This document shows positions 4,612 to 56,741 of a stretch of 64,000 nt of DNA, one piece after another (the first letter of the stretch is position 1; each line of letters opens with the position of its first letter). Source of the stretch: Candidatus Tectimicrobiota bacterium (GTDB lineage Bacteria; JACPUC01). A program made the translations under genes and the position numbers. The notes under the pieces were generated by a model. It worked only from the letters and a program-made list of their open reading frames with translations, searched no databases and was not told the origin of the DNA. The stretch spans positions 1-64,000 of the forward strand of contig JACPUC010000006.1 in the NCBI GenBank assembly GCA_016192455.1. The letters are read 5' to 3'.

Positions 4612-4862
4612 TCGTCGGGGTTCCACCTTGCGGTGCAATGGCGAGGGGTGGAGAGCGGAAGCGCTCGGCAGGTTATGGTGCGGGCCTGGCGCTCCCCCTC
4701 TCCTCATCACCCGAAAGACGCAAGAATTCTCGCCGCAGGGCGCCCTCTTCTCGAGGTGTGCTGACGGGGTTCCCCGGCAGGCGCCCTGCGGCGGATCGCA
4801 ACCCCTCGTAGTGAATCGCACTTGCAAGGCATGGCGCTAGGCGCCGCCATGGCGAGTCGGGG

Positions 4863-5621
4863 ATGAGATCAGCAAGCACCCGCAATCAGGCTGCGCCCGC
4901 CGCCGCGCTGTCTGAAGCGCCGGCGCATGTTGCGGTCGTGACGGGCGCCGGTCGCGGCATCGGCGCCGCCATCGCCGCAGGGCTCGCCGCCGAGGGGATG
5001 CGGGTGGCCCTGCTGGCGCGAACCGCCTCGGAGCTCCAGGCGGTCGCCGAGCGCATTCAGGCACGGGGCGGCCAGGCCCTGGCGCTGCAGACCGATATCA
5101 CCGATGCGCGGCAGGTTGAGGCCGCTGTGGCCAGCGTGGCGGAGCGGCTCGGCGTCGTCGATGTGTTGGTGAACAACGCCGGCGTGGTGATCGTGCAACC
5201 ATTGGTAGAGATGCGACGCGCAACCTGGGAGCGCGTCATCGGCACCAACCTCACCGGAGCCTTCCTCTGCTGCCGGGCGGTGTTGCCGGGGATGCTGCGG
5301 AAAGAGTGGGGCAGGGTCATCAACATCGCCTCTATCTCGGGACGCGTGGGCACGCCGAAGCTGACCGCCTATTGCGCCTCGAAGTGGGGTCTCCTGGGGT
5401 TCACCAAGGCCCTCGCCGAAGAGGTGCGCCAGGCTTCGATCACGGTCAACGCCATCTGTCCCGGCTCCGTTGATACGGCGATGCTGCGGCAGTCGCGACC
5501 AGGCGAGCGTCCCGACATGGAGCCCGATGACATCGCCGACGCCGTCTGCTTCCTGGCCTCGGAGCGGGCAAAGCGCATCACCGGGGCGGTGATCGATATC
5601 TTCGGCGCGCAGTCGCTGTAA
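4863..5621 (+). CDS. SDR family oxidoreductase
   Basis: TGAGRGIG, NNAG, YCASK. Confidence 0.9.
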   Translation: MRSASTRNQAAPAAALSEAPAHVAVVTGAGRGIGAAIAAGLAAEGMRVALLARTASELQAVAERIQARGGQALALQTDITDARQVEAAVASVAERLGVVDVLVNNAGVVIVQPLVEMRRATWERVIGTNLTGAFLCCRAVLPGMLRKEWGRVINIASISGRVGTPKLTAYCASKWGLLGFTKALAEEVRQASITVNAICPGSVDTAMLRQSRPGERPDMEPDDIADAVCFLASERAKRITGAVIDIFGAQSL

Positions 5622-5906
5622 TGCTGCCTGTGGGGTGCGCAGGCGGCGAGGGCAGGTCGCCCTCCGTTCTGATCCAGTGGCTCCACCCTGACGAAAGAAG
5701 GCGCCCCATTCTCAGACGCGGTGAGAGGGTGTGTAGATCCTACGTAGTCTCCAGGACACGTTGTGTAGGTATTAGACTCGCAGCGGCGCGGCATCCAGCC
5801 TCAGGAGGGAAAGGCAGCCACCTGGTTGCCGGCATTCCGGAGAGAAGAAAAGATATAGAAAATCAGGCTTTTCACAAAAGATGTTGAAAAGTTGGATGAA
5901 AACTCT

Positions 5907-5936
5907 TTGCTTTCTCCTGGAGGCTCTCAGTATAAT
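5907..5936 (+). promoter_or_regulatory. Candidate sigma70 promoter
   Basis: TTGCTT-N18-TATAAT in an AT-rich patch about 490 nt upstream of the ATPase gene. Confidence 0.5.
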
Positions 5937-6426
5937 AGGTGGAGGGTATGACAAAACCGTCCGCTGCTCGTGGGTGTCGTGCCTTGCGGAGGGAATTGCA
6001 GCCTACGCCGGAACGGCAGAGAAAACCACGGCCATCATGCCGGCGTGCTAATCGTGGAGCTTCCGGGGGCAAAGACTTCGTTGCTCCTGCTGAATGCGAG
6101 GTTCGGGCAAGGCGAGACACTGCCTCCTTGATTTCTTGTTCGAGAAACTGGAACCATGATGGTCGAGATGGAGTTCATGACGAGAACGGCGCCGCCTCAT
6201 TCATCTCGGTTCTCAGGGCAAGAGGCTGACGCCCTGGCTGGACCCTTGACGAGTGCAGCGCGGGGTGAGGAAGTGCTGCGGCGCGTCTTCTCTTTTCGGC
6301 AGCGGCCGCGCCGGCAGCGTTCTCCGCGAGGCCGCGGAACGTTCGCCCCCTGCTGAAGCCGCCACCGTTCACGTTCCGCACAGCCTGCTCTTCCAGGCAG
6401 TGGTTGAGAAGGCGGGAATCTCAAGG

Positions 6427-7230
6427 ATGTACGAAGCCTACTGGGGGCTGAAAGTTTCGCCGTTTGATAACGCGCCCGATCCAGCATTCTTTTACAACTC
6501 CCCAAAGCATGAAGAGGCCCTCAATCGACTGCTCTACGTAGCGCGGCGGCAGAAGGGGGCCGCCATGCTGACGGGCGAGATCGGCTGCGGCAAGACCCTG
6601 ATCGTGCGTCTCCTTATGAAGGAGCTGCTGCAACAGCACTACGAAATCGGCCTCATCGTCAACCCTATGCTCGCCCCCGATGAGCTGCTGCGCGAGATCT
6701 TGCACCAGCTTGGCCTCTCCGCCGGGGAGGAAGGCAAGGGCGAGCTGATCCATCGCCTGAACTCGATGCTGGTCGAGACGGACGCCCGGGGCCACAGCAC
6801 CGTCCTCATCATCGATGATGCGCAGGACATCCAGGAGACGCGCACCTTCGAGGAACTGCGCCTGCTCCTGAACATGCAGCTCAACAATCGCTTTCTGCTC
6901 ACGCTCCTCCTCGTCGGTCAGCCTGAGCTGGAGGTGAAGGTGACGAAGCTGCAACAGTTTGAACAACGCATCGCGCTCAAGTACCACCTGGACCCGCTCG
7001 ACTTCGATGAGACCGTCCACTACATCACCACCCGACTGGAGCGAGCCGGAACGAAGCGGCAAGTTTTTACCTACGACGCGATCGAGAAGATCTACGCCAT
7101 GAGTGGCGGCATCCCCCGTCGCATCAACAATATCTGCGATCTCAGCCTCCTGGTCTCTTACGGAATGCAAGCCAAGGAAGTGGATGTGAATCTCGTGCTG
7201 GAAGTTATTAAAGACCTGAAGTGGCATTGA
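6427..7230 (+). CDS. ExeA/GspA-type AAA ATPase (class often linked to exopolysaccharide/PEP-CTERM loci)
   Basis: MYEAYWGL..PF...PDP.FFY, Walker A GEIGCGKT, Walker B IIDDAQ, LVGQPEL, SGGIPRRIN. Confidence 0.88.
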   Translation: MYEAYWGLKVSPFDNAPDPAFFYNSPKHEEALNRLLYVARRQKGAAMLTGEIGCGKTLIVRLLMKELLQQHYEIGLIVNPMLAPDELLREILHQLGLSAGEEGKGELIHRLNSMLVETDARGHSTVLIIDDAQDIQETRTFEELRLLLNMQLNNRFLLTLLLVGQPELEVKVTKLQQFEQRIALKYHLDPLDFDETVHYITTRLERAGTKRQVFTYDAIEKIYAMSGGIPRRINNICDLSLLVSYGMQAKEVDVNLVLEVIKDLKWH

Positions 7231-7753
7231 GAGCGCCCAGGGGGAAGACCCGCGGGAGTTCCTCGTTACCCGAGGTCGGGTGCGGGACGCAGATGTCGTC
7301 GGCATGGCTTGGTTCTTGCTTGGAGATAAGCGGAGGCTGCGTTATCCTCGTCGCGGTGGGCGGGGTGGCGGACGCCTGGAGCGCCGAGCTTCCGGCGCCC
7401 TTGCGGGGGGGGGAGAGCAGGGGTCGGGCCCAGCCATCCCTGACGAACCCCTAGTAGAGAGAAGGCTGCACACCCAATTCTGTCGCGTTGCGCCGCCGCG
7501 TGGGTCGTTTGGTAGGGCGGGGAGCGGGTGGAAGAAGGTTTCTGCCGGTTTTGTTGCGCGACCCTTGCAGGAGGGTTCATCTTTACAAGTAGAGAGGCAC
7601 GCCTCTTGGCCTCAGGAGCGTCGGGGTGTGCCGGGGAATCGTTCTCGCGGCTCGCGTCGCCGCTTCTTCAGCCCGGCGTTGATGAGCCGTTGCGTTGTGT
7701 GGAGTTCTTCCCTGTGCCAGGGGTGGGTTCACCACCCTGCACTCGAGATCAGA

Positions 7754-8944
7754 ATGGTCCGCTTCTCCGATCTCATCAAGCGCGAGATGATCGATGCCCC
7801 CCAGCGCAAGCACAAGCCTGCTGGGCAGGAGGAGGAGAAGGAGCGCCCGCGCGAGGGGGGTGACGAGGTTGAGACCAGTCCCGAGAGGGGAGGCAGGGGC
7901 GGTGAGATCGGCGAGCGCTTCATTTCGAGGACAGCCCCGGAGCGGCCACCGGCCCGAAGCGGCGAGGGAGGGGGGCGCGTGGCGGCGCCGATCACGGTGC
8001 AGGCAACAAGGGAGAGTGCGGCAAGGGCGCTCAGCGTCGACGACTTCGTGCACTCCCAGGCCAACTCCTTCTACCTCTCCATCGTGGAGTACATCGAGCA
8101 GCAGCTCCGCCGCGTCATCGAGGATGCGCCGATCGAGGTGGCGCCTGGGGAAAAGATCGTCCAGCAGCTCATCGAAGACCCCAGGCAGTGCGAGCTGGTC
8201 GGTTTTCGCGCCACCCTGGGAGACGTGTCGCTGGACTGGCTTGCCACGAACATGGCGAACGTCTGCGTCTACTCCCTGAAACTTGCTCATGGGATGCAGC
8301 GCCACTCACCGCAGGAGCTGCGGCTCCTCGGCATGGCTGCGCTGCTGCACGATATCGGCGTGGCCAAAATCCCAGAGGCGGTGGTGAACAAGAATGAGGC
8401 GTTCACGCCCAAAGAGTATGAGCTGATGAAGCACCACCCGCAGATCAGCGCGCAGCTCATCTCCGCCTTGGGGGATGACTACAAGGAGGTGGCTGCGGTC
8501 GTCCTCCAGGAGCATGAACGGTACGGCGGCCAGGGTTACCCGCGCGGCCTGCGCGGCGAGTCCATTCATCCCTTTGCGCTCATCATCGGCATGGTCGATG
8601 TCTTCGATGCGCTGGTGAGCCCGCGGCCGCACCGCAAGCGCTTCAGCCCGCCCTACGCCGTGAAGTTCATCATCGAGACGCAGCGCGACCACTTTGATCC
8701 GCGCCTCCTGAAGCGTTTCGTCATGGAGTTTTCCATGTTCCCGCTCAACAGCCTGGTGCGTCTCAACACCCGGGCGATCGGGCGGGTGGTGCGGATCAAC
8801 AGCACTTACGCCATGCGGCCCACCGTGGAGATCATCTGCGACTCGCATGGGCGGCGGCTGGGTGTCCCGCAGGTGGTTGACTTGGCCGAGACGCCGCTGC
8901 TCTACATCATCGACAACGTTGACCCCGACGATGTGCCCGACTAG
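7754..8944 (+). CDS. HD-GYP domain protein (c-di-GMP phosphodiesterase-like)
   Basis: LLHDIG, HP, QEHERYGGQGYPRGL, DVFDAL.SPRPHR, FDP; start revised to MVRFSDLIK. Confidence 0.88.
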   Translation: MVRFSDLIKREMIDAPQRKHKPAGQEEEKERPREGGDEVETSPERGGRGGEIGERFISRTAPERPPARSGEGGGRVAAPITVQATRESAARALSVDDFVHSQANSFYLSIVEYIEQQLRRVIEDAPIEVAPGEKIVQQLIEDPRQCELVGFRATLGDVSLDWLATNMANVCVYSLKLAHGMQRHSPQELRLLGMAALLHDIGVAKIPEAVVNKNEAFTPKEYELMKHHPQISAQLISALGDDYKEVAAVVLQEHERYGGQGYPRGLRGESIHPFALIIGMVDVFDALVSPRPHRKRFSPPYAVKFIIETQRDHFDPRLLKRFVMEFSMFPLNSLVRLNTRAIGRVVRINSTYAMRPTVEIICDSHGRRLGVPQVVDLAETPLLYIIDNVDPDDVPD

Positions 8945-9272
8945 TGTTGCGTCACACAAATTCCCTCCTTAATCGGACGCCTTCTTCGGGCCATGTGGTG
9001 GGGGAGTTTTTGCGCAAGACCTTGGCTTCCCCACACCCCCAATCCCCGCGAGCTGCGCGGCAGCTCGCGTAGTCGGGGTGCGCGAGGGGGCGAGGCTCCC
9101 TCGCAAATTCTGGCGATAGAATGTGTGAAACAGCACACGAGGCCCTCCGGCGTCTCGTCCTGCCTGGGCCCGCCGAGGCGCCTCCGCCCGCAGGCGGCGG
9201 TTTGCTCGGCCGCGCTCCCCTCGCCGCCCTCTCGTTCCTCCCCCCTCGGCCCCTCTCCGCGCCTCTCAAGGC

Positions 9273-10427
9273 TCAGCGTCTATGCAGGCGCCAGAGGGCG
9301 TCGATGGCAAAGCCGCTGAGCCGCAGCATGCGCAGTAGGTAGGCAAGCGCGAAGAGTGGGCGCGGCAGCCAGGGGTAGTTTGCCGCCAGCGCGGACGGGT
9401 GCGGGAAGCAGGCCTCAACCAGCAGCCGCAGGCGTTGCCGCCGGGAAGGCGACCCATAGGCCAACATCACGTCGCCGAGGCGCGGCAGGGGCTGGAGCCG
9501 CGCCACCCCGAGGAGGAAGCGCCGCTCCACTCCGTCGAACGGCGCCTGGCGGTCGAGCCACGACTGCGGGACCGCGGGTAACCTCTCCCCCAGACCCAGG
9601 CGCAGCGTCTGCAGCAGATAGCAGAAGGCGCGCTCGCCGCCGACGGCGCGCGCCTCGCCGAGCACCTCCTCCCAGGTGATCTCCGGCTCCGACCCACCCA
9701 GGTGACGTTCCAACACCAGCCTCAGGTCGGCAACCCAGATGAGCCGCTTGAAGCCATGCTTGAGAGTGTGCGCCGTGAGGGCCAGGATCGTATCCGTCGG
9801 GCAGAGAAACCGTACACTGGCGGGGTAGCCGGGCATCGCCCTGGCCCGTTGCCAGAGGCCCATCGTGCTGAAGCGCCAGAGTCTGCCGCGGGCCGCCAGG
9901 CGCTCGACGTTGACGACGTGGCGGTGCAGGTCGATGACGGCGGCCCCCCGCACCCAGGTGGCGGAATCCGGCGCCAGGCGCTGGAAGCCACAGCTCCTGA
10001 GGACGCGGCGGAAGCGCTGGTACGAGCCGGGGAGGACGAGAAGGTCGAGATCTTCCATGGGACGCAGGCCGGGATCGGGGTAGTACAGCGCCTGCAGGAG
10101 CGCCCCTTGAATCGGCAGGAAGGAGCACTTCGCCTCGGCCGCCGCCGCCGCGACGACACCCAGCACATGCATCAGGTGCAGCGTGGTGGCGGTGGCGCCG
10201 TAGTAGGCGGCGCGCAAGAGGCTGAACGGGCGATTCAGGGCGGCTGTGCGTCGCAGCACCTCGCGGCACTGCCGGTAGAGAAGTCCCTGCAAGCCGTGGT
10301 CGCCGGCGAGGTCGAGCACTTCGCGCCAGTCCTGCACCGCGGCGCAGAGACGACGAACCTCGGGCGGCGGCAGTGGCTGGACCCGCGCAGCGCGCCTGAG
10401 GAGTTGCAGGGAGGTACGGTGGGGCAT
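9273..10427 (-). CDS. Nucleotidyltransferase family protein (NTP_transf_5-like)
   Basis: IQGALL..YY...LRPMEDLDLLV, IDLH, HTLKHGFKRLIWVADL. Confidence 0.85.
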   Translation of the reverse strand: MPHRTSLQLLRRAARVQPLPPPEVRRLCAAVQDWREVLDLAGDHGLQGLLYRQCREVLRRTAALNRPFSLLRAAYYGATATTLHLMHVLGVVAAAAAEAKCSFLPIQGALLQALYYPDPGLRPMEDLDLLVLPGSYQRFRRVLRSCGFQRLAPDSATWVRGAAVIDLHRHVVNVERLAARGRLWRFSTMGLWQRARAMPGYPASVRFLCPTDTILALTAHTLKHGFKRLIWVADLRLVLERHLGGSEPEITWEEVLGEARAVGGERAFCYLLQTLRLGLGERLPAVPQSWLDRQAPFDGVERRFLLGVARLQPLPRLGDVMLAYGSPSRRQRLRLLVEACFPHPSALAANYPWLPRPLFALAYLLRMLRLSGFAIDALWRLHRR

Positions 10428-10704
10428 TGCCGGCGCCGAGGTTCAATCAGGAAGGGCGGAGGCTGCAAGTTCGGTTTCTGACAAGCTTACGGTGTCCGAG
10501 TATACAGGAGAGAGCCAGAGGCGCGGAAGAGCTGGGGCTGGAAGCGGAGCGAGGCTTTCCTCGTTCGAGGGGGGGAATCGACCGCCGAGAGGGCGCGGAG
10601 GTTGGCGGGTCTGCCGGGTTTTTCCAGGGGAGAGGAGGAACAGCGGCGGCGCCGGGACGGCCGCTCTCCTGCCGGGGTTCCGACCCCTGGCGCCGTTGTT
10701 TGTC

Positions 10705-11697
10705 CTAGCTGCCGGTCTCGGGGGTTGCCGCGAGGCGGTCGACGAGCTGCGCCACCAGGGCCGCGGTTGCGGGCGCCTCGCCGCTGCGCAGGGTGAAGCA
10801 GGCGCAGCGTTCGACAAGGCGGAGGAGGGCCTCGAAGCTCGGCACCCGGGGCGCGGGCAGGCGCACGAGCTGGTTCGCTAGATGGCGGAGCATGAGGCTG
10901 CGAGGCATCGGCTCGAGCGACGGCGCGGCGGGCTGGGCGGCGAGCTGGGGGAGGAGGATGGCCCGCAGCGGCGCGCCCGCTCCCAGCCTGGCGGGAGCTG
11001 CCCCGCTTTCCCCCTGCGCGCCTCTGTCTGCCTGGCTCACGACATCCAAGGGGTTGACGTACCAGAAGGGCCCCTTCTCTTCCTTGATGTGGTACCCGCC
11101 GGCCGACAGCCGGGGGAGGAAGGGACGCAGGGGGTCGAGGCTGCCCGCCTTGATGCTGAGAGCACGGTAGTAAGGAAGGATGCGCAGCGAGGGGACCTCA
11201 AGGAACACCACCTCATCGGCAAGGTAGCTGAAGCCGTGCGCCAGGAGGGTGCAGACGAGGGTGGTCTTGCCGGCGCCGGGGGGACCCACCACAAGAAGCC
11301 CGACGCCGCGTTTGACCACGGCCCCGGCGTGGAGCTGCAGGTAGTCGCTCAGGTGCTCGACGAGGCAGCAGGCCAGCGCCATCTCCAGCTCGGGCACCAG
11401 CTCGCGGCGGTTGCTTGTGGTGTAGAGGAGATCATCCTCTTCCAGAAGCACGTAGCGCAAGCGTCGCTGCGATCCGGCCTGCGGGGTGACGCGCCTCTGG
11501 GCAAAGAGCGACAGGGTGACATGAGCGGGTTCCGTCGGCGCGACGAGGAGATGCCGATGGAGATGCGCAAACTCGTCCACGATGGTGCGAACCGTGGAGC
11601 GCACGCACGCCGAGAAGGTGGCAAGGCGGAGGTGGCAGCTTGCTGTCCAGCACTTGGGCAGGTGGAGGAGCGACGTTGCCCGCTGATCGTGAGGCAT
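10705..11697 (-). CDS. HPr-kinase-related kinase (HprK-rel-A / lasso-peptide kinase-like)
   Basis: LQLHAGAV, Walker A GPPGAGKTT, YLADE, PYYRALSIK; start uncertain. Confidence 0.85.
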   Translation of the reverse strand: MPHDQRATSLLHLPKCWTASCHLRLATFSACVRSTVRTIVDEFAHLHRHLLVAPTEPAHVTLSLFAQRRVTPQAGSQRRLRYVLLEEDDLLYTTSNRRELVPELEMALACCLVEHLSDYLQLHAGAVVKRGVGLLVVGPPGAGKTTLVCTLLAHGFSYLADEVVFLEVPSLRILPYYRALSIKAGSLDPLRPFLPRLSAGGYHIKEEKGPFWYVNPLDVVSQADRGAQGESGAAPARLGAGAPLRAILLPQLAAQPAAPSLEPMPRSLMLRHLANQLVRLPAPRVPSFEALLRLVERCACFTLRSGEAPATAALVAQLVDRLAATPETGS

Positions 11698-12044
11698 ATC
11701 GAGCTCGGAGCAAGGTGGAGATCTTCCGGCTTCACCGCCGGCGGTCTGGTCGAACGGATTACCATCTGGCGGGGGAAAGGCGGTGAGAGAAGACGCACTC
11801 GGCAGCCGGGAACGGCCGCTGCGCAGGGGACATCGCGACGTGTCCCCGGATTGTCCCCGCCGGAGGTGCGTGGCTGGGCACGAGGCGCTGTGGCGTGGGT
11901 TTCACCCGCCTGGCGTAGATGGTGCTGAAGTAGGCAAGCAAGGTCCAAGTCATTGCAAACGCGGGCATCAGCACATGCTCAAGGGCGGCCCGCTGGCGGA
12001 TGGGCGAGCGACTTTCGACGCCGGCCCTGCAAGCGCGTCGTACC

Positions 12045-12338
12045 TCACGGCAGTGGCGCATCAAGCAGGTTGCGACTGCGAAACAATTCAAGCAGCGCCT
12101 GAATATCCTTCTCGGCCTGCTCGGGTCGCACGTCAAAACGGCCGCAGACGGCCTCCACCAGCTCCGCCATTCCATGCCGGCCATCGAGGAGGTCCCAGAT
12201 GGCTCTGGCTGTCGGGTTCAGCGCGTGAACCATCTCAGCTTGCGGGTCCAGGACAATGACCTCGTCATCGAGAGGTCGAACAATCAGGTCCTGGCGCCGA
12301 GAGGGGTGCTGCATCTGCTGCTGCTTCACGACGCGCAT
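12045..12338 (-). CDS. PqqD-family protein / RiPP recognition element (RRE)
   Basis: LDDEVIVLD..HALNPTARAIWDLLDG...LVEAVCGRFDV..EQAEKDIQALLELF..NLL. Confidence 0.9.
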   Translation of the reverse strand: MRVVKQQQMQHPSRRQDLIVRPLDDEVIVLDPQAEMVHALNPTARAIWDLLDGRHGMAELVEAVCGRFDVRPEQAEKDIQALLELFRSRNLLDAPLP

Positions 12339-12504
12339 CGACGAGCGGAGAATGGCGAAAAGCTCACGCCTCGCCGCCTAGGTTGTTCCACAACGAGCAC
12401 GTTCCTCGGCACGGCCAAGGAACGCACCCTCCCCACCCGCTCTTTCACGCAGACCAAGTGTGTCTTCCTGAAGGGACCCTGCTCGCCGCGGGCTGCGTCG
12501 AACC

Positions 12505-12816
12505 CTAGTCGTTGTCCTCGCCAAAACGCCCGCGACGCCGACGCCGGCCAGGCGGGGACGTCTTCTCCTGTTTCTTCCCCTTCCTGTCTTTGTCATCATC
12601 CTGATCCTGGGGGAGAAAGGGATTCCACCTCTGGGCTTCGACGTCTGAGAGGGCAACCGACTGGACCAGCGGGGCGACATAAGGAAGCAAGCCAATCCCC
12701 ACCAGCCCGGTCTTCAGGAACCGCCGCCGCGTGGCGCCAGACTCCGCCCCCTCGGGCTGTGACTCTCCACCCTCGCGGTCTTCGTCACTCTCGGAGCGCA
12801 TGCTGCTCGTGCTCAC
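12505..12816 (-). CDS. Putative precursor peptide with twin-arginine-like signal and YxxP motif
   Basis: GTG start with AGGAGG RBS; TRRRFLK, hydrophobic stretch, YVAPLV, VEA/Q, charged tail containing TSPP. Confidence 0.75.
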   Translation of the reverse strand: MSTSSMRSESDEDREGGESQPEGAESGATRRRFLKTGLVGIGLLPYVAPLVQSVALSDVEAQRWNPFLPQDQDDDKDRKGKKQEKTSPPGRRRRRGRFGEDND

Positions 12817-12852
12817 CGCTGATGCCTCCTACAACTAGTTCTCACGTAATAA

Positions 12853-12881
12853 ATTATAGCCGCCAGGTAAGGAGGCGTCAA
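12853..12881 (-). promoter_or_regulatory. Near-consensus sigma70 promoter for the peptide cassette
   Basis: Minus strand TTGACG (12881-12876), N17, TATAAT (12858-12853). Confidence 0.75.
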
Positions 12882-13292
12882 GTAACACTGGGAGGATCTC
12901 CGCGACTTGCACCGCTCTCTTCCACGCTTCTCGGCCTGGAGTAGTCCAACACTCCGGCCGCCGCTCCAGGCAAAACTTCATTTTCGCACGTGGTCAACGG
13001 TTCCTTTATCGCTCTCCGTCGCTGCCGCGGCCTTCGGTGTGCCGCGGCATTTTTTGAGTTGACTTTGATCGAGATTGAATTTATTTTGCTTTTCACGGAG
13101 ATATAGTAAAAACTCTGCGGCTCCACCTTAGGGTCCTCACCACAACGGTTCGGAGCTGCGGGGGAGACCACCAGCGTGTGGGGAATTCTTCATGCGGCTG
13201 CCCGCCCGCCAGCGGCTGTCAGGGGCGGCAGGCGCATCTCCAGTGCGAGCGGGGGACCAACACGGTCGAGCAACGCGAGTAAGGGAGAGGCC

Positions 13293-14834
13293 ATGATGAG
13301 AGTCGTCAGACTGCTCGGTGCGCTCCTCCTTGGGCTCTTCATCACCGCCTGCGCGCAGCGCACGCTGTACGTTTCCGATGGGCGGATCGTGCCTCCGGAG
13401 CGCGCGCTTCTAGCCCTGGCGCAACAGCAGGCAAAGTCGTCCGAAGCCGCTCGGGTGGAAGAACGCGGCATTCCCGCAGCACCACCCACCATCTCCCCCC
13501 CTCTGCAGCTCGAAGTTAGGCCCACGCCGCCATCTGGCGAATCCCCCGCGGAGGAGGCTGAGGCTGCGGGGCAAGAGCAGGCGCCGCAAGGTGAAGCCCC
13601 TGCGACGCCGGCTGAGGCCCAGCCCGAAGCTGCCGCGAAGCCGAGCAATGGCAAGGGCGCGCCTGCCGCGGCAGCGGTGGGGACGCCCGCGGCGCCGGCA
13701 AAGTCGAACGGGGCCGCACCGCCAGGACAGCGACCGGCAGTGGCGGCACCCGAGGGGATAACCGGGCGCGAAATCCCGATCCTCGCCCCGCCGGTTCCGA
13801 TCAGTGAGGAGCTGCTTCCTTTCAAAATGATCCAGGGGCAACCGGAGTACATCGTCGGCCCGGGCGATGTCCTGGCGGTGCGGCTGTTCACCCGCGGCAC
13901 CGAACGGGAACTCAGCCTCCTCGTTCCTCCATCCGGCACCATTTCGATTACATTCGTCGAGGACGTGCAGGCAGCCGGGCGCACCCCTTCCGAAATCGAT
14001 GCGGATATCACCAGAAGGCTGTCCCGCTTTTTCCGCGGCCCGCAAGTGGACGTCTTTGTCAAAGAGTACAGCAGCAAACGGATATTCTTTTTCGGCGAGG
14101 TGAACCGTGTGGCCGGCCAGCGCTCCGGGCCGGGCATCTACCCGCTGTCGGGACGCACCACGCTGTTAGAGCTTCTCCTGCAGGCCGGCAGCGAAACTCC
14201 CGACGCCGACCTGAAGCAGGTGGAGCTGACACGCGACGGGAAGGTCTATGGCTTGAACCTGGAAGACGCTCTTTTTCGCGGCGCCGCGGAGCATAATCCC
14301 GTCCTGCAACACAACGATCGCGTCCTCATCGCCAACAAGCGGCGCTTCATCAGCGCGGTGCGCGAGAAAATCCGGGTGAGCGCCTACGGCGAGGTTGTCA
14401 GGTCGGGCAGCTTCGACTTGCCAGCGGATCAGACCTTCCGCATCATGGATGCGCTGGCCTCGGCGCAAGGCTTCACCCAACGTGCAGACCTGAAAGCGAT
14501 TCGGCTCATCCGGCAGGAAAAAGGCAAGATCACCGTCCAGAAGGTCAACTTCTTTGATATCCTAAAAGGGGATGTGAACCAGAACGTGGCGCTTCAGGAC
14601 GGCGACCAGGTTTTCCTGGATCGATCCTTCTCGGCGAAGTTCAGCACTGTCCTCAACCGTGTCAACCCGATCCTATCGCTCATCCTCATCCCCGCGATCC
14701 TGCGCGACACCTATACCACCGGCGGCGGGCTGCGCTACGATACCGGGCCGGTGGAGACTGGCGTGGGCGTGTCGCCGGAGGTTACCACGATTGCCAGGGA
14801 GCAGTTGCTGCGGACCTTGCCCGTGGCGCCGTAG
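13293..14834 (+). CDS. wza: Polysaccharide export lipoprotein (Wza/OPX, SLBB domains) with Pro/Ala-rich N-terminal linker
   Basis: Lipobox FITAC; EYIVGPGDVL, G.IS..V..AGRT, FGEV..PGIY, second SLBB GEV..SG. Confidence 0.88.
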   Translation: MMRVVRLLGALLLGLFITACAQRTLYVSDGRIVPPERALLALAQQQAKSSEAARVEERGIPAAPPTISPPLQLEVRPTPPSGESPAEEAEAAGQEQAPQGEAPATPAEAQPEAAAKPSNGKGAPAAAAVGTPAAPAKSNGAAPPGQRPAVAAPEGITGREIPILAPPVPISEELLPFKMIQGQPEYIVGPGDVLAVRLFTRGTERELSLLVPPSGTISITFVEDVQAAGRTPSEIDADITRRLSRFFRGPQVDVFVKEYSSKRIFFFGEVNRVAGQRSGPGIYPLSGRTTLLELLLQAGSETPDADLKQVELTRDGKVYGLNLEDALFRGAAEHNPVLQHNDRVLIANKRRFISAVREKIRVSAYGEVVRSGSFDLPADQTFRIMDALASAQGFTQRADLKAIRLIRQEKGKITVQKVNFFDILKGDVNQNVALQDGDQVFLDRSFSAKFSTVLNRVNPILSLILIPAILRDTYTTGGGLRYDTGPVETGVGVSPEVTTIAREQLLRTLPVAP

Positions 14835-15277
14835 CGCTCGACGGTTGACGGTGCGCGAGGGCCGAGGCAGCGGCCGCGAGCCGGCGCGGCGAGGTCGTCG
14901 TGGACCAGCAGCGGCAACACGCTTGGCGCTCTTGCTGCGCGCCTTGCATGCCGATAGGGGCGGTAAGCGCCCTTCGCGCGGCGACATTGGCGCGCCGCGG
15001 GAGGGTGGAGGTGCGCCACGGGGTGATCGCCTCTTCGTCCGCATGCGAGGGGACCGCCTTGTGACTTGCTAGGAAGGGTGGGAATGCGTATACGTTTACA
15101 TAGGGGATGAAAAAGCAGACGGTGTTTGTTCGAGCGGTTGAGGCTGTCGAGGAGGGGTGGCGCCGTAGTGGTAGGAGGGCGGCGGCGAAGAGCCGCCCGC
15201 CGCGGAGTGGGTCGGGCGGCGCAAAAGTGAACTGCGGCGGTATTCTCCACCACCCATGGTTTTTCTAGTGTGCAGCA

Positions 15278-17869
15278 ATGGCAACCTACGAATTTAACAT
15301 TCGCGACTACTGGCATATCATCCGCAAGCGCAAGATGGTGGTCATCTTCACCATCGTCATGTTGGGCTTTTTCAGCTTCGCCTTCGGCTCCTTGCGCAAG
15401 CCCATTCCGATCTACCGCGCCACCTCAGCGGTGAAGATTGATCAGAATGTGGGTCTGGCCGGGAGGTATTTCGACAGCGGCACCGCGGCGGCGGGTGACA
15501 ACCTAGAGACGCAGGCGATGATCATCCAAAGCTTCCCGATCATGGAGCGGGTGGCCCGGCAGTTGAAGATCGTCTCAGGGGAAGGAGAGACCGAGGAGGT
15601 CCGGAACAGCAACGAGTACCTGAACCAGATTCTTGCCATCAAGGGGCAGGTGAACACCTCGCAAGAAGGGTTCACGAATATCATCAATGTCCACGCCACC
15701 TCCCGCGACCCGCGCTTTGCCCAGAAGCTCGCCAATGCCGTGGCCGAGGTCTACCGCGATTTCCACAACAGCAAGCGCAATCAGCGCAAGAACGATACCC
15801 GGGAGTTTATCGAAAAGCAGCTTCTCGTCTACCGGCAGCGCTTGGCCGAGGGTGAGGAGGAGGTCCGCCAGTACCGCGAGCGCCACAACATCGTCTCCAT
15901 CGATGCGCAGTCCGGGCAGCTCCTGACGCAGCGGCAGTCGGTGGAGGATCGCCAGAAACTGCTTGAAGCCTCCCTCAGGGACCTCGATTCCGTGGAACGG
16001 GAGCTGCGGAATACGAGAAATCTCCAGCAAGCGAATCTCGGCACCTTCTTCGCCGAAGGTGTGAGCGGCATGTTCGGGCGCCTCCACGCCCGTCTCACGG
16101 AACTCAACCTCCAGCGCGACACCCTCCTCTTGCAGTTCACGAAAGAGCACCCGCAGGTGCAGGACATGAACCTGCAGATCGAAGAAGTCCTCATGGCCAT
16201 GACGAATGAGTTGAAGGGCCACCGGGATTCGCTGCGCTTCCGGCTGAAAGAGGTAGAGGCTACGGCCAAGGGGCTCGAGGAGTACTCCCAGCGGCTGCCG
16301 CAGTTGGGACTGGAGCTGGCCCGCCTGCAGCGCCGGGTGGCCCTGAACGGCGAGCTTTACACGTTCCTGGAGCGGAAGTACCAGGAAGCCCTCATCAATG
16401 AGTCGGAGAAAGTCGAAGAGGTCAGCATCGTGCGGCCGGCCCTGCTGCCGACCGAGCCGATCAACCAGCCGAGCGTGGTGACCACCACCATGGTCGGGAT
16501 CGTCCTTGGCGGCATCCTGGGATTGGTGTTCGCCTTCATCCTGGAAACCTTGGATACCTCGATCGGGCGCATCGAAGATATCGAGAGCTACCTCGATGTG
16601 CCGGTGCTCGGCGTCATCCCCTACTTCGAGATTGAAACGCACGGCGAAGAGGAGACCGAGCCGGACGGCGGTCGCGGGGAGCAGGCCACGCGGCAGAGTC
16701 GCGCCCTGCTGAGCTCGTTCTACTCGCAGAACTCGAGCGCGGCGGAGGCGTACCGCTCGCTGCGCACGAACGTGCAGTTCCTGCTGCGCGAGCGGAACCT
16801 GAAGACCATCGTGGTCTCGAGCACGACGCCGCGCGAGGGGAAATCGACCATCGCCGTCAATACCGCCGTGGCGATGGCCCTGGTCGGCCTGCGCACGTTG
16901 CTCATCGACTGCGACCTGCGGCGTCCATCGATCGCCCGCTACTTCGGCATCGAGAACGATCTCGGCTTCACCGATATCATCGTCGGCAACAGCGACTGGC
17001 GCGAGACCGTGAAGACGGTTGCCGACATCATCATGGGGCAGATGGGCCTGGAGAGCGTCCTCAACACGCCGGGGATCGATAACCTCAACCTCATCGTCAG
17101 CGGCAAGGTTCCGTTGAATCCCACGGAGATGCTCAACTCCAAGCGCGCCGAGGAGCTCATCCGGGAGATCAGCGCGGACTATGACGTGGTGCTGATCGAC
17201 ACGCCGCCCATCCTGCCGGTGACTGATGCGGTGGTCCTCGGTTCGAAGGTCGACGGCGTCATCCTGGTGTACCTGGCGGGCGAGACGGGGCGCAAGTCGC
17301 TGATGCACGCCAAGGGGCAGATGGATGCGGTGCGGGCGGAGGTGCTGGGCATCGTGCTGAACGGCCTGAAGTCGGCTATGAGCCCCGATTACATGGATTA
17401 TGGCTACTATCACTACTATGGTCAGGCCGAGGAAGAGGGGAAGGTGGGGCTTGGCGAGGAGGGCTTTGGGCCCTTGCAGAAGGTGAAGCGCCTCTTTGGC
17501 CGTCTGACGGGATCCGGGAAGAAGGCGGGGAGCGCGGTTGCGAGCGAGCCCGAGCAGGAGTTCGAGGGTTTGGGAATGAAAACGCGCGGCTCGGCGGAGA
17601 ACGGGCGCTCGCTGACGAAGACCCTCTTCCTCTTCCTCGCCGTTGCCGCCCTGCTGGTCGGCTATATCCTGGCCCACGGCCAGCCACCCAGGCAGAGCGA
17701 AGACATCATCCCACAGCGCGCCGCGGTGCGCACCTCGCAGGTGAGCAGCCCCGCGGAGACGATGCCGGACGGCGTCGCACCCCCTCCCGCCGCGACTGTC
17801 GCGGCGCCGGTTTCCAAGGTTTCTGCCGTACCGAAGGCCAAAGCGCCAGCGCGCGCGGCGGGGCCGTAG
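15278..17869 (+). CDS. wzc: Polysaccharide co-polymerase / tyrosine autokinase
   Basis: N-terminal TM, coiled-coil domain, second TM, AEAYRSLRTN, STTPREGKST, IDCDLRRP, IDTPP, Tyr cluster YMDYGYYHYY. Confidence 0.93.
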   Translation: MATYEFNIRDYWHIIRKRKMVVIFTIVMLGFFSFAFGSLRKPIPIYRATSAVKIDQNVGLAGRYFDSGTAAAGDNLETQAMIIQSFPIMERVARQLKIVSGEGETEEVRNSNEYLNQILAIKGQVNTSQEGFTNIINVHATSRDPRFAQKLANAVAEVYRDFHNSKRNQRKNDTREFIEKQLLVYRQRLAEGEEEVRQYRERHNIVSIDAQSGQLLTQRQSVEDRQKLLEASLRDLDSVERELRNTRNLQQANLGTFFAEGVSGMFGRLHARLTELNLQRDTLLLQFTKEHPQVQDMNLQIEEVLMAMTNELKGHRDSLRFRLKEVEATAKGLEEYSQRLPQLGLELARLQRRVALNGELYTFLERKYQEALINESEKVEEVSIVRPALLPTEPINQPSVVTTTMVGIVLGGILGLVFAFILETLDTSIGRIEDIESYLDVPVLGVIPYFEIETHGEEETEPDGGRGEQATRQSRALLSSFYSQNSSAAEAYRSLRTNVQFLLRERNLKTIVVSSTTPREGKSTIAVNTAVAMALVGLRTLLIDCDLRRPSIARYFGIENDLGFTDIIVGNSDWRETVKTVADIIMGQMGLESVLNTPGIDNLNLIVSGKVPLNPTEMLNSKRAEELIREISADYDVVLIDTPPILPVTDAVVLGSKVDGVILVYLAGETGRKSLMHAKGQMDAVRAEVLGIVLNGLKSAMSPDYMDYGYYHYYGQAEEEGKVGLGEEGFGPLQKVKRLFGRLTGSGKKAGSAVASEPEQEFEGLGMKTRGSAENGRSLTKTLFLFLAVAALLVGYILAHGQPPRQSEDIIPQRAAVRTSQVSSPAETMPDGVAPPPAATVAAPVSKVSAVPKAKAPARAAGP

Positions 17870-18260
17870 CGCGGCAGGAGGCGACCCCGCGGCCGCCAAC
17901 GCGGCATCGGACCATCGGCGAGCCGGCGAGCAAGCGCCCCGGGCCCTGGTGAGGCGCGGGGGTGGCGGCGCCGCGGCGGCGCGACCGCTGCGAGGCGGCG
18001 TAGGGCAGCCTCCCTCTTGGCGTGCGTGGACCTCGCGACCCCCTCCTTTACCAACACCGCCCCCACAACGCTGGGGGCGACGGTCAGCGCGGCGTTGGCG
18101 GCGCACAACCGCGCCGAGCACCCTTCCTTGCCGATCTCCTCTCTCCCCGGCCCTCCGCGCCGGGAGACGCCTGCGGGAGCGCCGTCAGGGCGCGCCAGCC
18201 GCGGCGCTTGCGCTGGGCGCCGGGGCAGCCCGGCAGCGAAGAAGCATCGGGACCCTCACC

Positions 18261-19964
18261 ATGCGTGGACCAACCGCCGGGTCAGCAAGCCTTGTGATGC
18301 TCCTGTTCGTCGCCGTGATCCTGGTGGTCACGTTCTTCGCCGGCTTGGTCGTCATTCAAATTCCTGGCTTCGTGGCGTTGTCCGTCGGCCTCGGCCTCGC
18401 CATGTTCGTCCTTGCCTTCTTCAACCTCGATCTCGCTCTCTTCTTGCTCATCTTTGCCATGCTCCTGTCGCCGGAGTTCAGCGTTGGCGGTGGCGGCGGC
18501 ACCAGCATGGAAACCCAGCGCGGCGCGGTCATTCGCCTCGATGACCTCCTCCTCGTCCTGATCTCCTTCTCCTGGCTGGCTCGCATGGCGCTGCAAAAGG
18601 ACCTGGGCCTCATCCTGCGGACGCCCTTGAATCGGCCCATCATTGCCTACACCTTCGTCTTCGTCTTGTCCACCGGCCTGGGCATGATGGTGGGTCGGGT
18701 ACAAATCTTCTCCGGCTTCTTCTTCATCCTGAAGTACCTCGAGTACTTCGTGCTCTACTTCATGGTCTCCAATAGCCTGAGAACGAAATCGCAGGCCTAC
18801 CGCTACATCGCTGCCCTGCTCATCACGGCGGGGATCGTGTCGGTGATCGCGATCGTCCAGATTCCCGGAGGCCGGCGGGTTTCGGCGCCTTTTGAAGGGG
18901 AGCGCGGCGAACCGAATACCCTCGGTGGCTACCTGGTGCTGATGATCGCGCTCTCCCTGAGCATGGCGCTGACCATCCGCGACCGCGCCAAGACCTGGTT
19001 ACTCGTGGGTCTTAGCTTCATCATGGTCATCCCCGTCCTCTTCAGCCTGTCGCGCAGCTCCTGGCTGGCGATGTTCCCCATGACGGCGGTGCTCCTCTTC
19101 TTCTGCAAACGCCGCGGCTACCTCCTCCTGGGGGTGATCGTCATTGCCCTCCTGGCGCAGAGCGTCATTCCGCCTGAGGTGCGCAACCGCATCTTGTACA
19201 CCTTCCAGCAGCAGCGCACCTCCGTCGCGGTCGGCGGCGTGGCCCTCGATCCTTCGACCTCGGCGCGACTCTCCAGCTACTGGTCGGTCCTGACGGACGT
19301 CACCAAGCATCCCATTCTCGGCTACGGGGTGACAGGCTACCCATTTCTGGATACCCAGCTCATGAAAGTGCTTGCCGATACCGGGCTGGCCGGGGTGGGG
19401 ACCTTCCTGTGGCTCATCGCGGCCTTGTTCTACCACATCTGGTCCAGTCTCAAACGCGCCACGACTCCGCTGGAGGAGGGGATCGCGCTGGGGTTCCTGG
19501 CCGGACTTGCGGCCATGCTCACCCATTCCCTGGGTTCAAACACCTTTATCATCGTGCGCATCATGGAGCCGTTCTGGTTCCTGGCGGCAATCGTCACGCT
19601 TCTGCCGAGCCTCGAGGAGAAAGCCGCGGTGGAACCATCCGTGCCTGCTCCTCGCCGCTTGCAGCGTCGTCCCCTGCCGTTGCCAACGCGGCTGACGCCG
19701 CGGCCTGTGGGTCGAGCCGTGGCGCCGGAGCCTCCCGCCCCGAGCGAGCAGCCAGCGGAGCGCGCGCCTGAACCCCGGAGCAGGCGACCTGCCGGGCGCC
19801 AGCCCGCCCGCCCAAGTCCGCCGGCGCCGAAGCCCGGGCGGGGTGTGCGGATCAGCGGGGCCGTTGCAGCGCGAAGAGGCGGGAGCGCTTCAGCCCCAGG
19901 CGAGCCAAAAGATACTCGGCAAGGCAGTGGAGGAAGCGCAGGCCGTAGCCGACGCTCCGGATGA
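18261..19964 (+). CDS. O-antigen ligase / Wzy polymerase family membrane protein
   Basis: More than 10 TM segments, [31 protein letters not shown]; Pro-rich tail. Confidence 0.85.
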
Positions 19965-20595
19965 AGGAGATCGACGAGGCCTCCCGCATGTAACGCACCG
20001 GGATGGGCGCATCGCCAAGCCGAAAGCCGAAGGCCACCGTCTGAACCAGGAGCTGCGCGTCGAACTCAAACCCATCGCCGTTCCGCTGGAAGGGGATGGT
20101 CTCGAGCACCTCGCGCCGATACACCCGAAAGCCGGAGTGCACCTCGCCGAGGTTCTGTCCCAGCACCACGTTGCTGATGATGGTGAGGAGCCGATTGAAG
20201 AAGTACTTGTAGGGCGGCATGCCGGACGAGAGCGCCTCGCGGCGGGTGCGGATGCGCGAGCCGAGCATCAGGTCGCAGACGCCGTGCTCGATGAAGCCGA
20301 GGAAATAGGGGATGAGGCGGCTATCGTACTGGTAGTCGGGATGCAGCATGACGATGACGTCGGCTCCGGCTTTTAACGCCGCTTCATAGCAGGTCTTCTG
20401 GTTGCGACCGTAACCGTAGTTGCGGTCGTGGCAGTGCACCTCCAGGCCGAGGGAACGGGCAATCGCCACGGTGGCGTCGCGGCTGCCGTCGTCCACCAAG
20501 ATGATGCGGTCCACGCAGTCAGCCGGAATGTCGGCAACCGTGCGCGCCAGGGTTCGGGCCGCGTTATAGGCGGGGAGTACCACCACCACACGCAC
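19852..20595 (-). CDS. Glycosyltransferase family 2 (DPM1-like)
   Basis: [42 protein letters not shown] start with GGAG RBS. Confidence 0.9.
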
Positions 20596-25284: not shown

Positions 25285-25788
25285 ATGACGCCAGCAACCG
25301 CGAAGGTTATCATTGAGGGCTTGAAGCAGGCCGGCATCAACTTCGTCACCACCCTGCCGGAGTTCAACCTGCAACCGCTGGTGCAGGCGATCCACGACGA
25401 TGCGGAGATCATTCACGTTCCCGTCTGCCGCGAGGAGGAGGGCCTCGGCATCTGCGCCGGCGCCTACCTTGGCGGCAAGCAGGCAGCCATGGTGCTCATG
25501 AACACCGGCTTCCTGCTGTCGGCGAACATCCTCACCACCCTCCACTACCACACGCAGATTCCCGTGCTCATGCTCATCGGCTACTCGGGTGGCATGGGCG
25601 AGCCCTACCCGGCCCATACCTCGCTCGCCAAGGTCACCGAGCCGGTGTTGCGCGCCCTTGACATTCCGTACGAGCTGGTGGGCCGCGTCGACGCCATGCC
25701 GAAAGCGATAAGGTACGCGCAGGTGCAGGCCCGGAGCTCGCGACAGCCGGCGGCCATCCTCATGTACCAGGATGTCCTCTTTACCTGA
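25285..25788 (+). CDS. TPP-dependent decarboxylase alpha subunit (sulfopyruvate decarboxylase ComD-like)
   Basis: GINFVTTLP, VCREEEGLGICAGAYLGG, IPVLMLIGY. Confidence 0.8.
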   Translation: MTPATAKVIIEGLKQAGINFVTTLPEFNLQPLVQAIHDDAEIIHVPVCREEEGLGICAGAYLGGKQAAMVLMNTGFLLSANILTTLHYHTQIPVLMLIGYSGGMGEPYPAHTSLAKVTEPVLRALDIPYELVGRVDAMPKAIRYAQVQARSSRQPAAILMYQDVLFT

Positions 25789-25836
25789 GTCCTGAATCGC
25801 ACCAGCGAAAAGCGCCGAACGGCGAAAGGAGCGGTG

Positions 25837-38424: not shown

Positions 38425-38701
38425 GGCTTAATCCTCCGGATTGAGAAGGTATGGCTCGTCGTGCGGGCGGGACGCCCGCGCTCCACCCTCTCCTTGTGAC
38501 GCACGCCGGAGCGCGGGCATCTTGCCCGCAGGGGAGACCATGGAGACCACCATGCGCCGTGATTCCCCCTCGGTCGTGGCGCGGGCGGGCGCGGTGCGCT
38601 TTCCCTTGCGGGCGGGACGCCCGCGCTCCCAGCTTTTGTGTGACGCACGCCGGAGCGCGGGCATCTTGCCCGCTTCATTCGCGTCTACGTCGCGGCTCGG
38701 C

Positions 38702-42853
<4,152 letters not shown>

Positions 42854-43960: not shown

Positions 43961-43977
43961 AAGCCTCCTTCCCGAAG

Positions 43978-56716: not shown

Positions 56717-56741
56717 GGTTTCACTCCTCATGCCGCTCGGT

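Follow-up and report, generated by a model that had tools for sequence, protein, structure and literature searches.

A candidate linear phosphopeptide pathway with a twin-arginine-like leader beside polysaccharide export genes in a Candidatus Tectimicrobiota bacterium

Introduction

Linear phosphorylated members of the RiPPs, peptides that ribosomes make and that are modified after translation, were first shown in 2026, in Bacillota only, with the Linear Polyphosphorylated Peptide (LPP) family encoded by lppA-K-B-S-D-N (Popov et al., Nat Commun 2026; PMC13381572). LPP clusters lack a cyclase and lie within capsular or exopolysaccharide loci, the peptide was shown to stay linear, and the core of the system is a discrete RiPP recognition element (RRE), an HprK-like kinase and an uncharacterised NTP transferase. 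The kinase LppK adds up to four phosphates to Ser3 of the core and yields stable polyphosphorylated products, while the leader is removed by a signal-peptidase homolog in an RRE-dependent manner. The nucleotidyltransferase (NTase) LppN gave no activity, and the authors called the family restricted to Bacillota. Here we analyze a cassette of similar content at positions 9273 to 12881 of a 64,000-nucleotide stretch of a Candidatus Tectimicrobiota bacterium (assembly GCA_016192455.1, contig JACPUC010000006.1, positions 1 to 64,000), hereafter the window.

Two further systems are close to this cassette. In the lasso peptides of the paeninodin and pseudomycoidin type, HprK-like kinases phosphorylate the C-terminal serine of linear precursors (PMC8498205), and the PF14907-type enzyme PsmN, whose DxD motif is required, is needed for the appearance of one or two 162-Da hexoses on the phosphoserine (PMC6993621); both papers agree with an initial annotation of this DNA in presenting the kinase and the NTase as a lasso tailoring set. 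The second is the "HPr-rel-A system" (TIGR04352 with TIGR04353), a label used by NCBI, examples of which have a leader-bearing protein, a PqqD protein, a kinase and a PF14907 NTase one after another and no cyclase. Our literature search retrieved no paper naming HprK-related kinase, TIGR04352 or TIGR04353, or RRE-Finder together with a kinase and an NTase, and nothing on topic that joined twin-arginine with RiPP recognition element.

On balance we think that the four genes of the cassette probably, though not securely, specify a linear (non-lasso) RiPP-type phosphopeptide pathway, which would comprise capture by the RRE, phosphorylation, elaboration by the NTase and export through the twin-arginine translocation (Tat) system. 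The idea of a cyclase-less phosphopeptide pathway, put forward in the initial annotation, is right but has had a precedent in LPP since May 2026. What looks new by comparison is that a Tat-like leader would serve as the RRE site too, that a private peptidase and pump are lacking, and that the kind has spread through Pseudomonadota under the "HPr-rel-A" label.

Results

Four co-oriented genes diverge from wza and wzc

An open reading frame (ORF) listing combined with third-position G+C picked out four co-oriented minus-strand genes in the window, which has a G+C content of ~65%. These are a precursor-like small ORF of 103 aa with a GTG start (12505..12816), a 97-aa RRE of the PqqD family (12045..12338), a 330-aa HPr-kinase-like P-loop kinase (10705..11697) and a 384-aa NTase (9273..10427). 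A Shine-Dalgarno sequence (AGGAGG, 12825..12830, minus strand) is placed 8 nt 5' of the GTG start of the small ORF, and a sigma-70-type promoter, TTGACG-17 nt-TATAAT, occupies 12853..12881 on the same strand, with 11/12 consensus matches by consensus scan and sequence reading. The 4.4 kb scanned contain two promoter-like sites, where shuffled sequence would be expected to give 0.3. The cassette diverges from two plus-strand export genes, one Wza-like (13176..14834; Poly_export and SLBB domains) and one Wzc-like (15278..17869). Gene order, coordinates, promoter and divergence had all been described in the initial annotation, and each held up against the ORF listing, the family matches and the promoter scan.

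The 103-aa peptide carries a twin-arginine motif and a putative RRE-binding motif

Read from its N-terminus, the product of the small ORF starts with an acidic extension (residues 1-29, mostly acidic, net charge -6). TRRRFLK comes next, then 22 uncharged residues among which YVAPLV lies, and last a charged tail that includes SPPGRRRRRGR. Twin-arginine (Tat) signals have the consensus S/T-R-R-x-F-L-K, which TRRRFLK at residues 29-35 matches exactly (codons for RRRFLK, residues 30-35, at 12712..12729, minus strand); RRxFLK had been named in the initial annotation without being identified as this consensus. The uncharged run covers residues 36-57, with a mean hydropathy of 1.47. Within it, 16 residues past TRRRFLK, YVAPLV (residues 46-51, codons at 12664..12681, minus strand) fits [Y/W]xxPx[L/V], the RRE-binding motif of lasso and LPP leaders (PMC13381572), and is the predicted RRE-binding motif of this peptide. 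Small-x-small sites occur at SVA55 and VEA61.

A sequence search of 5.8 billion clustered proteins returned two relatives of the peptide, one of 102 aa with 81% identity that starts at the equivalent long position (P0008), and one of 105 aa with 66% identity over the central 40% (P0009). When the three sequences are aligned the ends vary, whereas RRRFLK.GL.GIGLLPYV.P.VQS.A.S is invariant, as is SP.GRR near the C-terminus. S57, just past the hydrophobic stretch, is conserved in 3/3 homologs. The C-termini read ...GEDND in the window peptide and ...EESN in P0008, and P0009 alone ends in SS. Because the two relatives match in length and share a near-invariant center with variable ends, the small ORF is, as judged from sequence comparison, a real gene beyond chance. 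A profile of the three peptides detected no further relatives among the 5.8 billion proteins, and family assignment gave nothing at E<=0.1. Look-alikes with a family in a protein atlas were all Tat-signal proteins (0.82-0.85), which we take as a lead only.

The RRE resembles lasso B1 proteins and LppB

The RRE matches PF05402 in Pfam (E 1.3e-17). Among the NCBIfam models, TIGR04248 (ScmD, 48.3 bits) and the lasso PqqD model (36.5 bits) both score above TIGR04353, yet under their own cutoffs. Its closest solved relatives are the leader-binding lasso proteins TbiB1 (5e-7) and TfuB1 (1.3e-3), followed by LppB (9x8z, 0.01), with PqqD proper weaker, and an ungapped alignment pairs its N41 and D78 with N33 and D70 of LppB, of which the first fixes the kink at the leader proline and the second hydrogen-bonds the leader tyrosine (PMC13381572). 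By sequence, then, the protein is of the lasso-B1/LppB type.

Co-folding of the RRE with residues 22-72 of the peptide, a check that the initial annotation had proposed, gave a median score of 0.67 (runs of 0.37, 0.69 and 0.67) against 0.01 for the best of three controls; the mark applied is reached by 116/157 solved complexes and 2/215 mismatched pairs, and a pass is to be read as likeness rather than binding of this particular pair, because like complexes have already been solved. The runs had at least 52% of their contacts in common, and the pLDDT of the partner was at least 46. The modeled interface joins peptide residues 43-57 and 59 (LLPYVAPLVQSVALS.V) to RRE residues 35-44, 47, 66-70 and 78-89, which form the canonical cleft, and the YVAPLV stretch is thus predicted to bind there.

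Similar cassettes recur in Pseudomonadota

Cyclase-less cassettes with adjacent twin-arginine-leader ORFs were found in 12 proteobacterial plasmid loci, two of which NCBI names "HPr-rel-A system". In Sphingomonas parapaucimobilis (NZ_CP155749.1, locus L006) the order is a 161-aa protein, an "HPr-rel-A system PqqD family peptide chaperone", an "HprK-related kinase A" and a nucleotidyltransferase. The first of these opens with a 35-residue acidic segment rich in Ala and Pro, after which comes the twin-arginine leader TSRRMLMLGAVGASTVIAVRPALAQ. The same order is seen on plasmid pVa1 of Vibrio alfacsensis (L004), behind a 274-aa SRRRFIR protein containing SRRRFIRSAAISSPILL...SAWAG, and the Vibrio kinase scores 318.4 bits against TIGR04352. 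The window therefore shares with the HPr-rel-A system its gene order, the lack of a cyclase and an upstream protein in which an acidic extension precedes a twin-arginine leader. It differs in that its kinase and PqqD protein fall below the curated cutoffs and in that the upstream proteins of L006 and L004 (161-274 aa) are unrelated in sequence to the window peptide. In L004, the plasmid table omits an 84-aa ORF (11577-11831, plus strand) that follows the leader protein and precedes the kinase, where PqqD would be expected; neither Pfam nor NCBIfam models matched it.

Alphaproteobacterial cassettes (Ensifer, Sinorhizobium, Rhizobium, Leisingera, Novosphingobium, Mesorhizobium, Methylobacterium and Parasedimentitalea) combine a PqqD-kinase fusion and an NTase with a small RRxFLK peptide, and the Leisingera, Ensifer, Mesorhizobium and Methylobacterium loci have the fusion and the NTase beside small ORFs that begin ...RR(E/Q/S)(F/I/A)L(K/Q)..G(R)FA..T.P.V..LL.T.L.S.A.A.SGG. 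In common with the window peptide these have RRxFLK, a hydrophobic stretch with PxV, and a small-x-small site followed by serine (…AIAKSGG…); their variable tails are Gly/Ser- or Lys/Arg-rich, and two of the loci (L010 and L015) adjoin polysaccharide export genes. In contrast to the window, the RRE is fused to the kinase, the kinases are at most ~39% identical to that of the window, in the P-loop region only, and leader profiles fail to connect the two sets of leaders. Overall, the window proteins match these loci at only 39-64 bits.

To define the leaders we dropped a first, loose twin-arginine pattern that gave 226 matches and used a strict rule (a start codon, RR within 40 residues, an uncharged hydrophobic run with hxxPx[LVIFA], and at least 15 further residues). 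This rule gave 30 matches in 264 kb, one of which adjoins each of the 7/7 non-lasso kinase-plus-NTase cassettes, a figure that is descriptive because the rule was written after five examples had been seen. Independent support came from a profile of four alphaproteobacterial leaders, which, run against the 1934 ORFs of eight new loci, returned eight matches at E<=7.7e-11, the next best being at E 0.24. In 6/6 of the kinase-anchored loci among them (L014-L019), one from Rhizobium tropici CIAT 899 and another on a Sinorhizobium meliloti replicon, the peptide ORF so found lies ~0.1-0.45 kb from the kinase or NTase. Tails of the peptides found by this profile are hypervariable and the leaders conserved. 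In the plasmid collection the alphaproteobacterial peptide was recovered in 87 records and the kinase in 31 records. Because the leader profiles do not connect the window family with the alphaproteobacterial family or with the L004 and L006 proteins (E>1), we dropped homology of these peptides and describe what recurs as an architecture rather than as a single peptide family of provable homology.

Several of these loci show further features. The Methylosinus locus (L009) has a PqqD-kinase fusion and neither an annotated NTase nor a leader ORF. In the Mesorhizobium locus (L007), the twin-arginine peptide ORF (8637-8999, plus strand) overlaps an annotated Val-rich hypothetical CDS (8693-8959, minus strand) that is probably a miscall. 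Orphan copies of the peptide occur at 7974-8279 of L012 and 8974-9276 of L013, both S. meliloti pSymB replicons, and in L013 a UDP-galactopyranose mutase and large glycosyltransferases lie 2 kb downstream; such copies are either precursors acting in trans or peptides with an independent role.

These data bear on whether the small ORF belongs to the pathway at all. It could be an ordinary Tat-secreted or membrane-anchored neighbor, with the enzymes acting on a different substrate, be it a peptide encoded elsewhere, a protein, or an intermediate (sugar or lipid) in polysaccharide synthesis. The lack of cross-family leader homology, the orphan copies without enzymes nearby, the sub-threshold TAT_signal hit that is the only Pfam match of the peptide, and the presence of PF14907 enzymes in non-peptide contexts such as phosphonate clusters (PMC8942020) would all fit this explanation. 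We nevertheless consider it unlikely, since a YxxPxV motif sits where the co-fold model puts the RRE cleft and a leader ORF is adjacent and co-oriented both in the first seven cassettes, for which the rule was made after five had been seen, and in the six of the independent test. Moreover, RREs are not known to act on non-peptide substrates.

The kinase is HPr kinase-like, and some of its relatives are fused to PqqD or PF14907 domains

TIGR04352 (HprK_rel_A) is the best family for the kinase, which also matches Hpr_kinase_C weakly (21.5 bits). Its Walker A motif is GPPGAGKTT (residues 138-146), and H123, G143, K144 and D161 are invariant in a 38-sequence alignment. A profile of the kinase family run against solved structures found HPr(Ser) kinases as best matches (3tqf, 2.7e-6). 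An exhaustive search returned 6513 representatives at E<=1e-3, 567 of them at E<=1e-10; the best non-self match has an E of 6.5e-29, with 31-38% identity, and a separate search gave one homolog of 89% identity. The plasmid collection contained no match to the window kinase at E<=1e-3.

Among 20 long relatives of the kinase, eight carry an N-terminal PqqD domain, three a C-terminal PF14907 domain and one a sortase domain, the other eight having no fusion; the PqqD and PF14907 fusions tie the three activities together. The protein with the sortase domain (P0084, 508 aa) joins it to an HprK-like kinase domain, a hint that such kinases act on cell-surface-bound proteins.

A P-loop pattern scan of genome contigs, with the kinase pattern taken from a 7-sequence alignment since the 38-sequence alignment had no stretch conserved enough, gave at least three loci, namely two lasso clusters (L001 and L003) and a radical-SAM-type locus (L002), none close to the window. 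The last of these, from an Anaerolineales metagenome-assembled genome, combines the same parts in another way, with two PF14907 NTases, a PqqD protein, a radical SAM enzyme and a short HprK-like protein at 4840-16422, along with a C25 peptidase of the gingipain type and an AAA_31 ATPase that is Wzc-like.

Since the best solved relatives of the kinase family are HPr(Ser) kinases/phosphorylases, the cassette might instead be a regulatory switch, with reversible phosphorylation of a small protein bound for the envelope by an HprK/P-like kinase serving to tune polysaccharide export, much as HprK/P acts on HPr. Transcription divergent from wza, and neighbors that include an HD-GYP protein and the Wzc tyrosine autokinase, would suit such a role. 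Against it stand the fusion of the RRE and of PF14907 NTases to kinases in relatives, the pairing of hypervariable tails with conserved leaders, which is a RiPP pattern and unlike a conserved regulator, and the stable polyphosphorylation of LppK products (PMC13381572). We regard a switch as quite improbable.

The window lacks lasso and LPP maturation genes

We scanned 120 ORFs of the 64-kb window with Pfam (6+40+74), covering every ORF of at least 80 aa in otherwise unassigned stretches. None matched Asn_synthase (the lasso cyclase), Transglut_core3 (the B2 peptidase), Peptidase_S24/S26 (an LppS-like signal peptidase) or the ABC_membrane and ABC_tran domains of an MsbA-like ABC exporter. With the lasso cyclase and B2 protein of L001 as queries, tblastn against the window reached E-values of only 0.8 and 0.06, respectively; as positive controls, L001 and L003 show a cyclase with B2 or a cyclase. 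The absence of a lasso cyclase and B2 from the window, asserted in the initial annotation, is therefore upheld. No tat genes were found in the 64 kb either.

Compared with LPP clusters, the window has the same RRE-kinase-NTase core inside a polysaccharide locus. LPP precursors combine a conserved leader with a variable tail and have a leader motif that starts YxxPxV and a serine near the leader end; against the consensus YxxPxVLxHQxIxFETxxS, YVAPLV fits the first six positions and the QSVALSDVEAQRW that follows differs. The SipW-like signal peptidase I (LppS) and MsbA-like pump (LppD) that define LPP are both missing from the window. The window leader lacks the rest of the LPP consensus (LxHQxIxFETxxS) and has instead an acidic extension of 29 residues followed by a twin-arginine motif, and the similarity of the RRE to LppB reaches only E 0.01. 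The window also has Wza/Wzc and SurA-like genes of the diderm type.

With regard to lasso peptides, the cassette shares with them the combination of an RRE (B1), an HprK-like kinase and a PF14907 NTase as well as the [Y/W]xxPxL motif of the leader, but lacks a macrolactam synthetase, B2 and an ABC exporter. A split lasso pathway is conceivable, in which the cassette would supply the tailoring half and a cyclase and B2 protein encoded elsewhere in the genome would thread this peptide. The lasso B1 proteins closest to the RRE among solved structures, the paeninodin/pseudomycoidin tailoring set formed by the kinase and NTase (PMC8498205 and PMC6993621), the retrieval of true lasso clusters with these enzymes (L001 and L003) and a view limited to 64 kb of the genome could all be cited for this. 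The peptide itself argues otherwise. At 103 aa it is far longer than lasso precursors, with 29 residues before the motif and without the penultimate threonine of the leader, and it has no terminal serine, the target of lasso kinases (PMC8498205). Cyclase and B2 are missing from the window, the cyclase-less architecture is repeated in 12 other loci, and the LPP family stays linear (PMC13381572); a split pathway is accordingly very unlikely.

The nucleotidyltransferase keeps the DxD motif

The NTase belongs to PF14907 (NTP_transf_5, E 2.3e-34), and its DxD motif is intact, with D126 and D128 invariant; this is the motif that PsmN needs in pseudomycoidin (PMC6993621). No solved sequence relative was found. 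Its structure model has a pLDDT of 75.7, from a thin 7-row alignment, and the nearest folds by Foldseek are MenT1 (E 1.5e-3, TM to target 0.56-0.59) and ANT(2'')-Ia, both weak at E ~1e-3; resemblance to ANT(2'')-Ia has likewise been reported for PsmN in the same source. The MenT1 toxins, as best Foldseek matches, would point to a toxin-antitoxin or anti-phage module with a MenT/AbiEii-like nucleotidyltransferase at its center. This is highly improbable, since those E-values are weak and ANT(2'')-Ia is equally good, none of the four proteins matched a PADLOC family beyond P-loop noise, and neither the context nor the RRE fits such a module.

In the plasmid collection the NTase had five weak matches, one of them on a Thalassobaculum plasmid (L005). 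There, at 9929-20351, six glycosyltransferases and a polysaccharide export gene surround a PF14907 NTase, an ABC transporter, a PqqD protein, a lasso B2 protein, a sulfotransferase and an Asn-synthase-related gene, so that a lasso-like set lies in a proteobacterial glycan locus.

A proposed route from capture to export

The gene content, motifs, RRE type, fusions in relatives and recurring architecture are shown above; how the peptide is bound, that and where it is phosphorylated, what the NTase adds, export by Tat and any role in the glycan we infer, as follows. The 103-aa product would be the substrate, and the stand-alone RRE would bind YVAPLV in its leader as an added beta-strand, as lasso B1 and LppB do, presenting the peptide to the HprK-like kinase for phosphorylation, possibly repeated, of a serine, the candidates being S57, S53 and S87. 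We favor S57 because it is invariant, lies two residues past the first small-x-small site and is placed similarly to Ser3 of LPP; a Ser or Thr was present at the equivalent position in 8/9 of the leaders first compared (read by eye). The PF14907 NTase would then elaborate the phosphate with a nucleotide or, in the manner of PsmN in pseudomycoidin, a hexose, after which the general Tat translocase would export the modified peptide and signal peptidase I would trim it. A short phosphopeptide of high charge would thereby be released into the envelope, where the Wza/Wzc polysaccharide is assembled.

The initial annotation had proposed a linear exported peptide that is phosphorylated and then nucleotidylated or glycosylated, possibly as a primer or anchor for the surface glycan. 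The part concerning an RRE-presented linear peptide acted on by kinase and NTase gains support from the RRE type, the motif, the co-fold model, the fusions and LPP. The primer or anchor role did not gain likewise, gene location being the only evidence for it; only location, in the window, in Leisingera and Parasedimentitalea and in LPP loci, suggests that the peptide may play a part in the neighboring glycan.

Export by Tat, as read from the leader sequence, we rate at slightly below an even chance. We propose the Tat and signal peptidase I route because the operon supplies neither peptidase nor pump and the leader fits; such a route would in turn account for the absence of both. The leader resembles a Tat signal in its exact TRRRFLK, its moderately hydrophobic, Gly- and Pro-containing stretch, its small-x-small sites and the cytoplasmic partner predicted on its hydrophobic part. 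It differs in a TAT_signal score below threshold and a long, acidic n-region. Tat signal-binding chaperones of the TorD/DmsD/NapD type bind the signal in the cytoplasm before export; the RRE fold is unrelated to these. A broader version of the scheme is doubtful. In it, the leader would be Tat signal and RRE dock at once, the RRE would act as a proofreading chaperone that masks the hydrophobic part of the signal until kinase and NTase are done, housekeeping Tat and signal peptidase I would replace the pump and peptidase, the arrangement would be widespread in Pseudomonadota, and the product, a phospho-(glyco)peptide, would decorate or organize the exported polysaccharide.

A number of observations weigh against the phosphopeptide pathway as we propose it. 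All of the evidence comes from sequence and models. Family scores fall below their thresholds, with 97.4 bits for the kinase against TIGR04352 (cutoff 200), 32.8 bits for the RRE against TIGR04353 (cutoff 35) and 12.6 bits for the peptide against TAT_signal (gathering score 22.7; relatives 13.1 and 14.1). Kinase and RRE are at most 38% identical to any relative save the one 89% homolog, the window peptide family amounts to only three clusters in 5.8 billion proteins, and leader profiles of the window family against the alphaproteobacterial family and the L004 and L006 proteins gave E>1 in both directions. Orphan copies in S. meliloti 1021 pSymB and RCAM1115 have no kinase or NTase within 8-9 kb. 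The co-fold pass may mirror likeness to solved RRE-leader complexes (5v1v, 6jx3 and 9x8z), and the inactivity of LppN leaves the NTase step unproven even in the model LPP system. The n-region is unusually long and acidic, and some relatives have a strongly basic tail that is awkward to reconcile with export. Finally, co-transcription is only putative, given inter-gene gaps in the cassette of 166, 347 and 277 nt, which are large for an operon.

The window and the proteobacterial loci together suggest that the RRE-kinase-NTase logic extends to diderms. If the scheme is correct, diderms would have an exit strategy in which a twin-arginine leader takes the place of a private peptidase and pump, a RiPP recognition element would be linked to the handling of Tat signals, and a Tat-dependent RiPP pathway of this kind would offer a possible origin for the signal-peptidase-type leader peptidase of LPP. 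The spread in Pseudomonadota would take in the Sinorhizobium loci and the NCBI "HPr-rel-A system", which would gain a candidate substrate, and tractable, non-pathogenic hosts such as rhizobia would become available for studying the NTase product and effects on exopolysaccharide and biofilm.

Surroundings of the cassette

Two of the gaps in the cassette, between the RRE and kinase genes (11698-12044, 347 nt) and between the kinase and NTase genes (10428-10704, 277 nt), are unusually long. In the former, the frame of an ORF without a family match (11759-12184) shows elevated third-position G+C (0.72-0.80), and this region could be another small gene or spacer. A scan of the gaps found no convincing minus-strand terminator. 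Rfam families were absent from the cassette, the sole RNA gene of the window being a tRNA-Gly outside it.

Downstream of wza and wzc, the plus strand encodes a Wzy_C protein, a GT2 glycosyltransferase, a MOP flippase and a GT1 glycosyltransferase. The polysaccharide locus also includes a short-chain dehydrogenase/reductase and two sulfopyruvate/phosphonopyruvate-decarboxylase-like subunits; the latter form an adjoining alpha/beta-like pair at the end of the locus (25285-26436, plus strand; 128.7 and 150.3 bits, below cutoffs) and may hint at a glycan decorated with sulfonate or phosphonate. At 26781-27464 (plus strand), two ORFs each have a fragment of a Mutator-family transposase (PF00872), which marks a broken insertion sequence bordering the locus. 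Upstream, also on the plus strand, are genes for an HD-GYP protein and for an AAA ATPase that is similar to the one associated with XrtA/PEP-CTERM (247 bits against a cutoff of 324.5). All PEP-CTERM system models stayed below their cutoffs, and PEP-CTERM-type tails were absent from the window. A SurA-like gene is present as well; Wza/Wzc and SurA-like genes are typical of diderm bacteria.

Further away, 23 kb from the cassette, 35797-36969 (plus strand) encodes an arylsulfotransferase-like protein (PF05935/PF14269); some paeninodin-type clusters come with sulfotransferases. The region 37750-44197 contains a HEPN_Swt1 protein, a 1398-aa ORF (38702-42898) whose sole match is a weak one to an IS200-like Y1 transposase, a phage small-terminase-like ORF (43520-43960) and tRNA-Gly(GCC) (44123-44197), and may represent what is left of a mobile element next to a tRNA gene. 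A second sugar cluster extends over 53102-63875 and encodes a WecA-like GT4 phosphotransferase and a PIG-L deacetylase, along with several GT4 glycosyltransferases (stp2-like, below cutoff) and GT2 glycosyltransferases.

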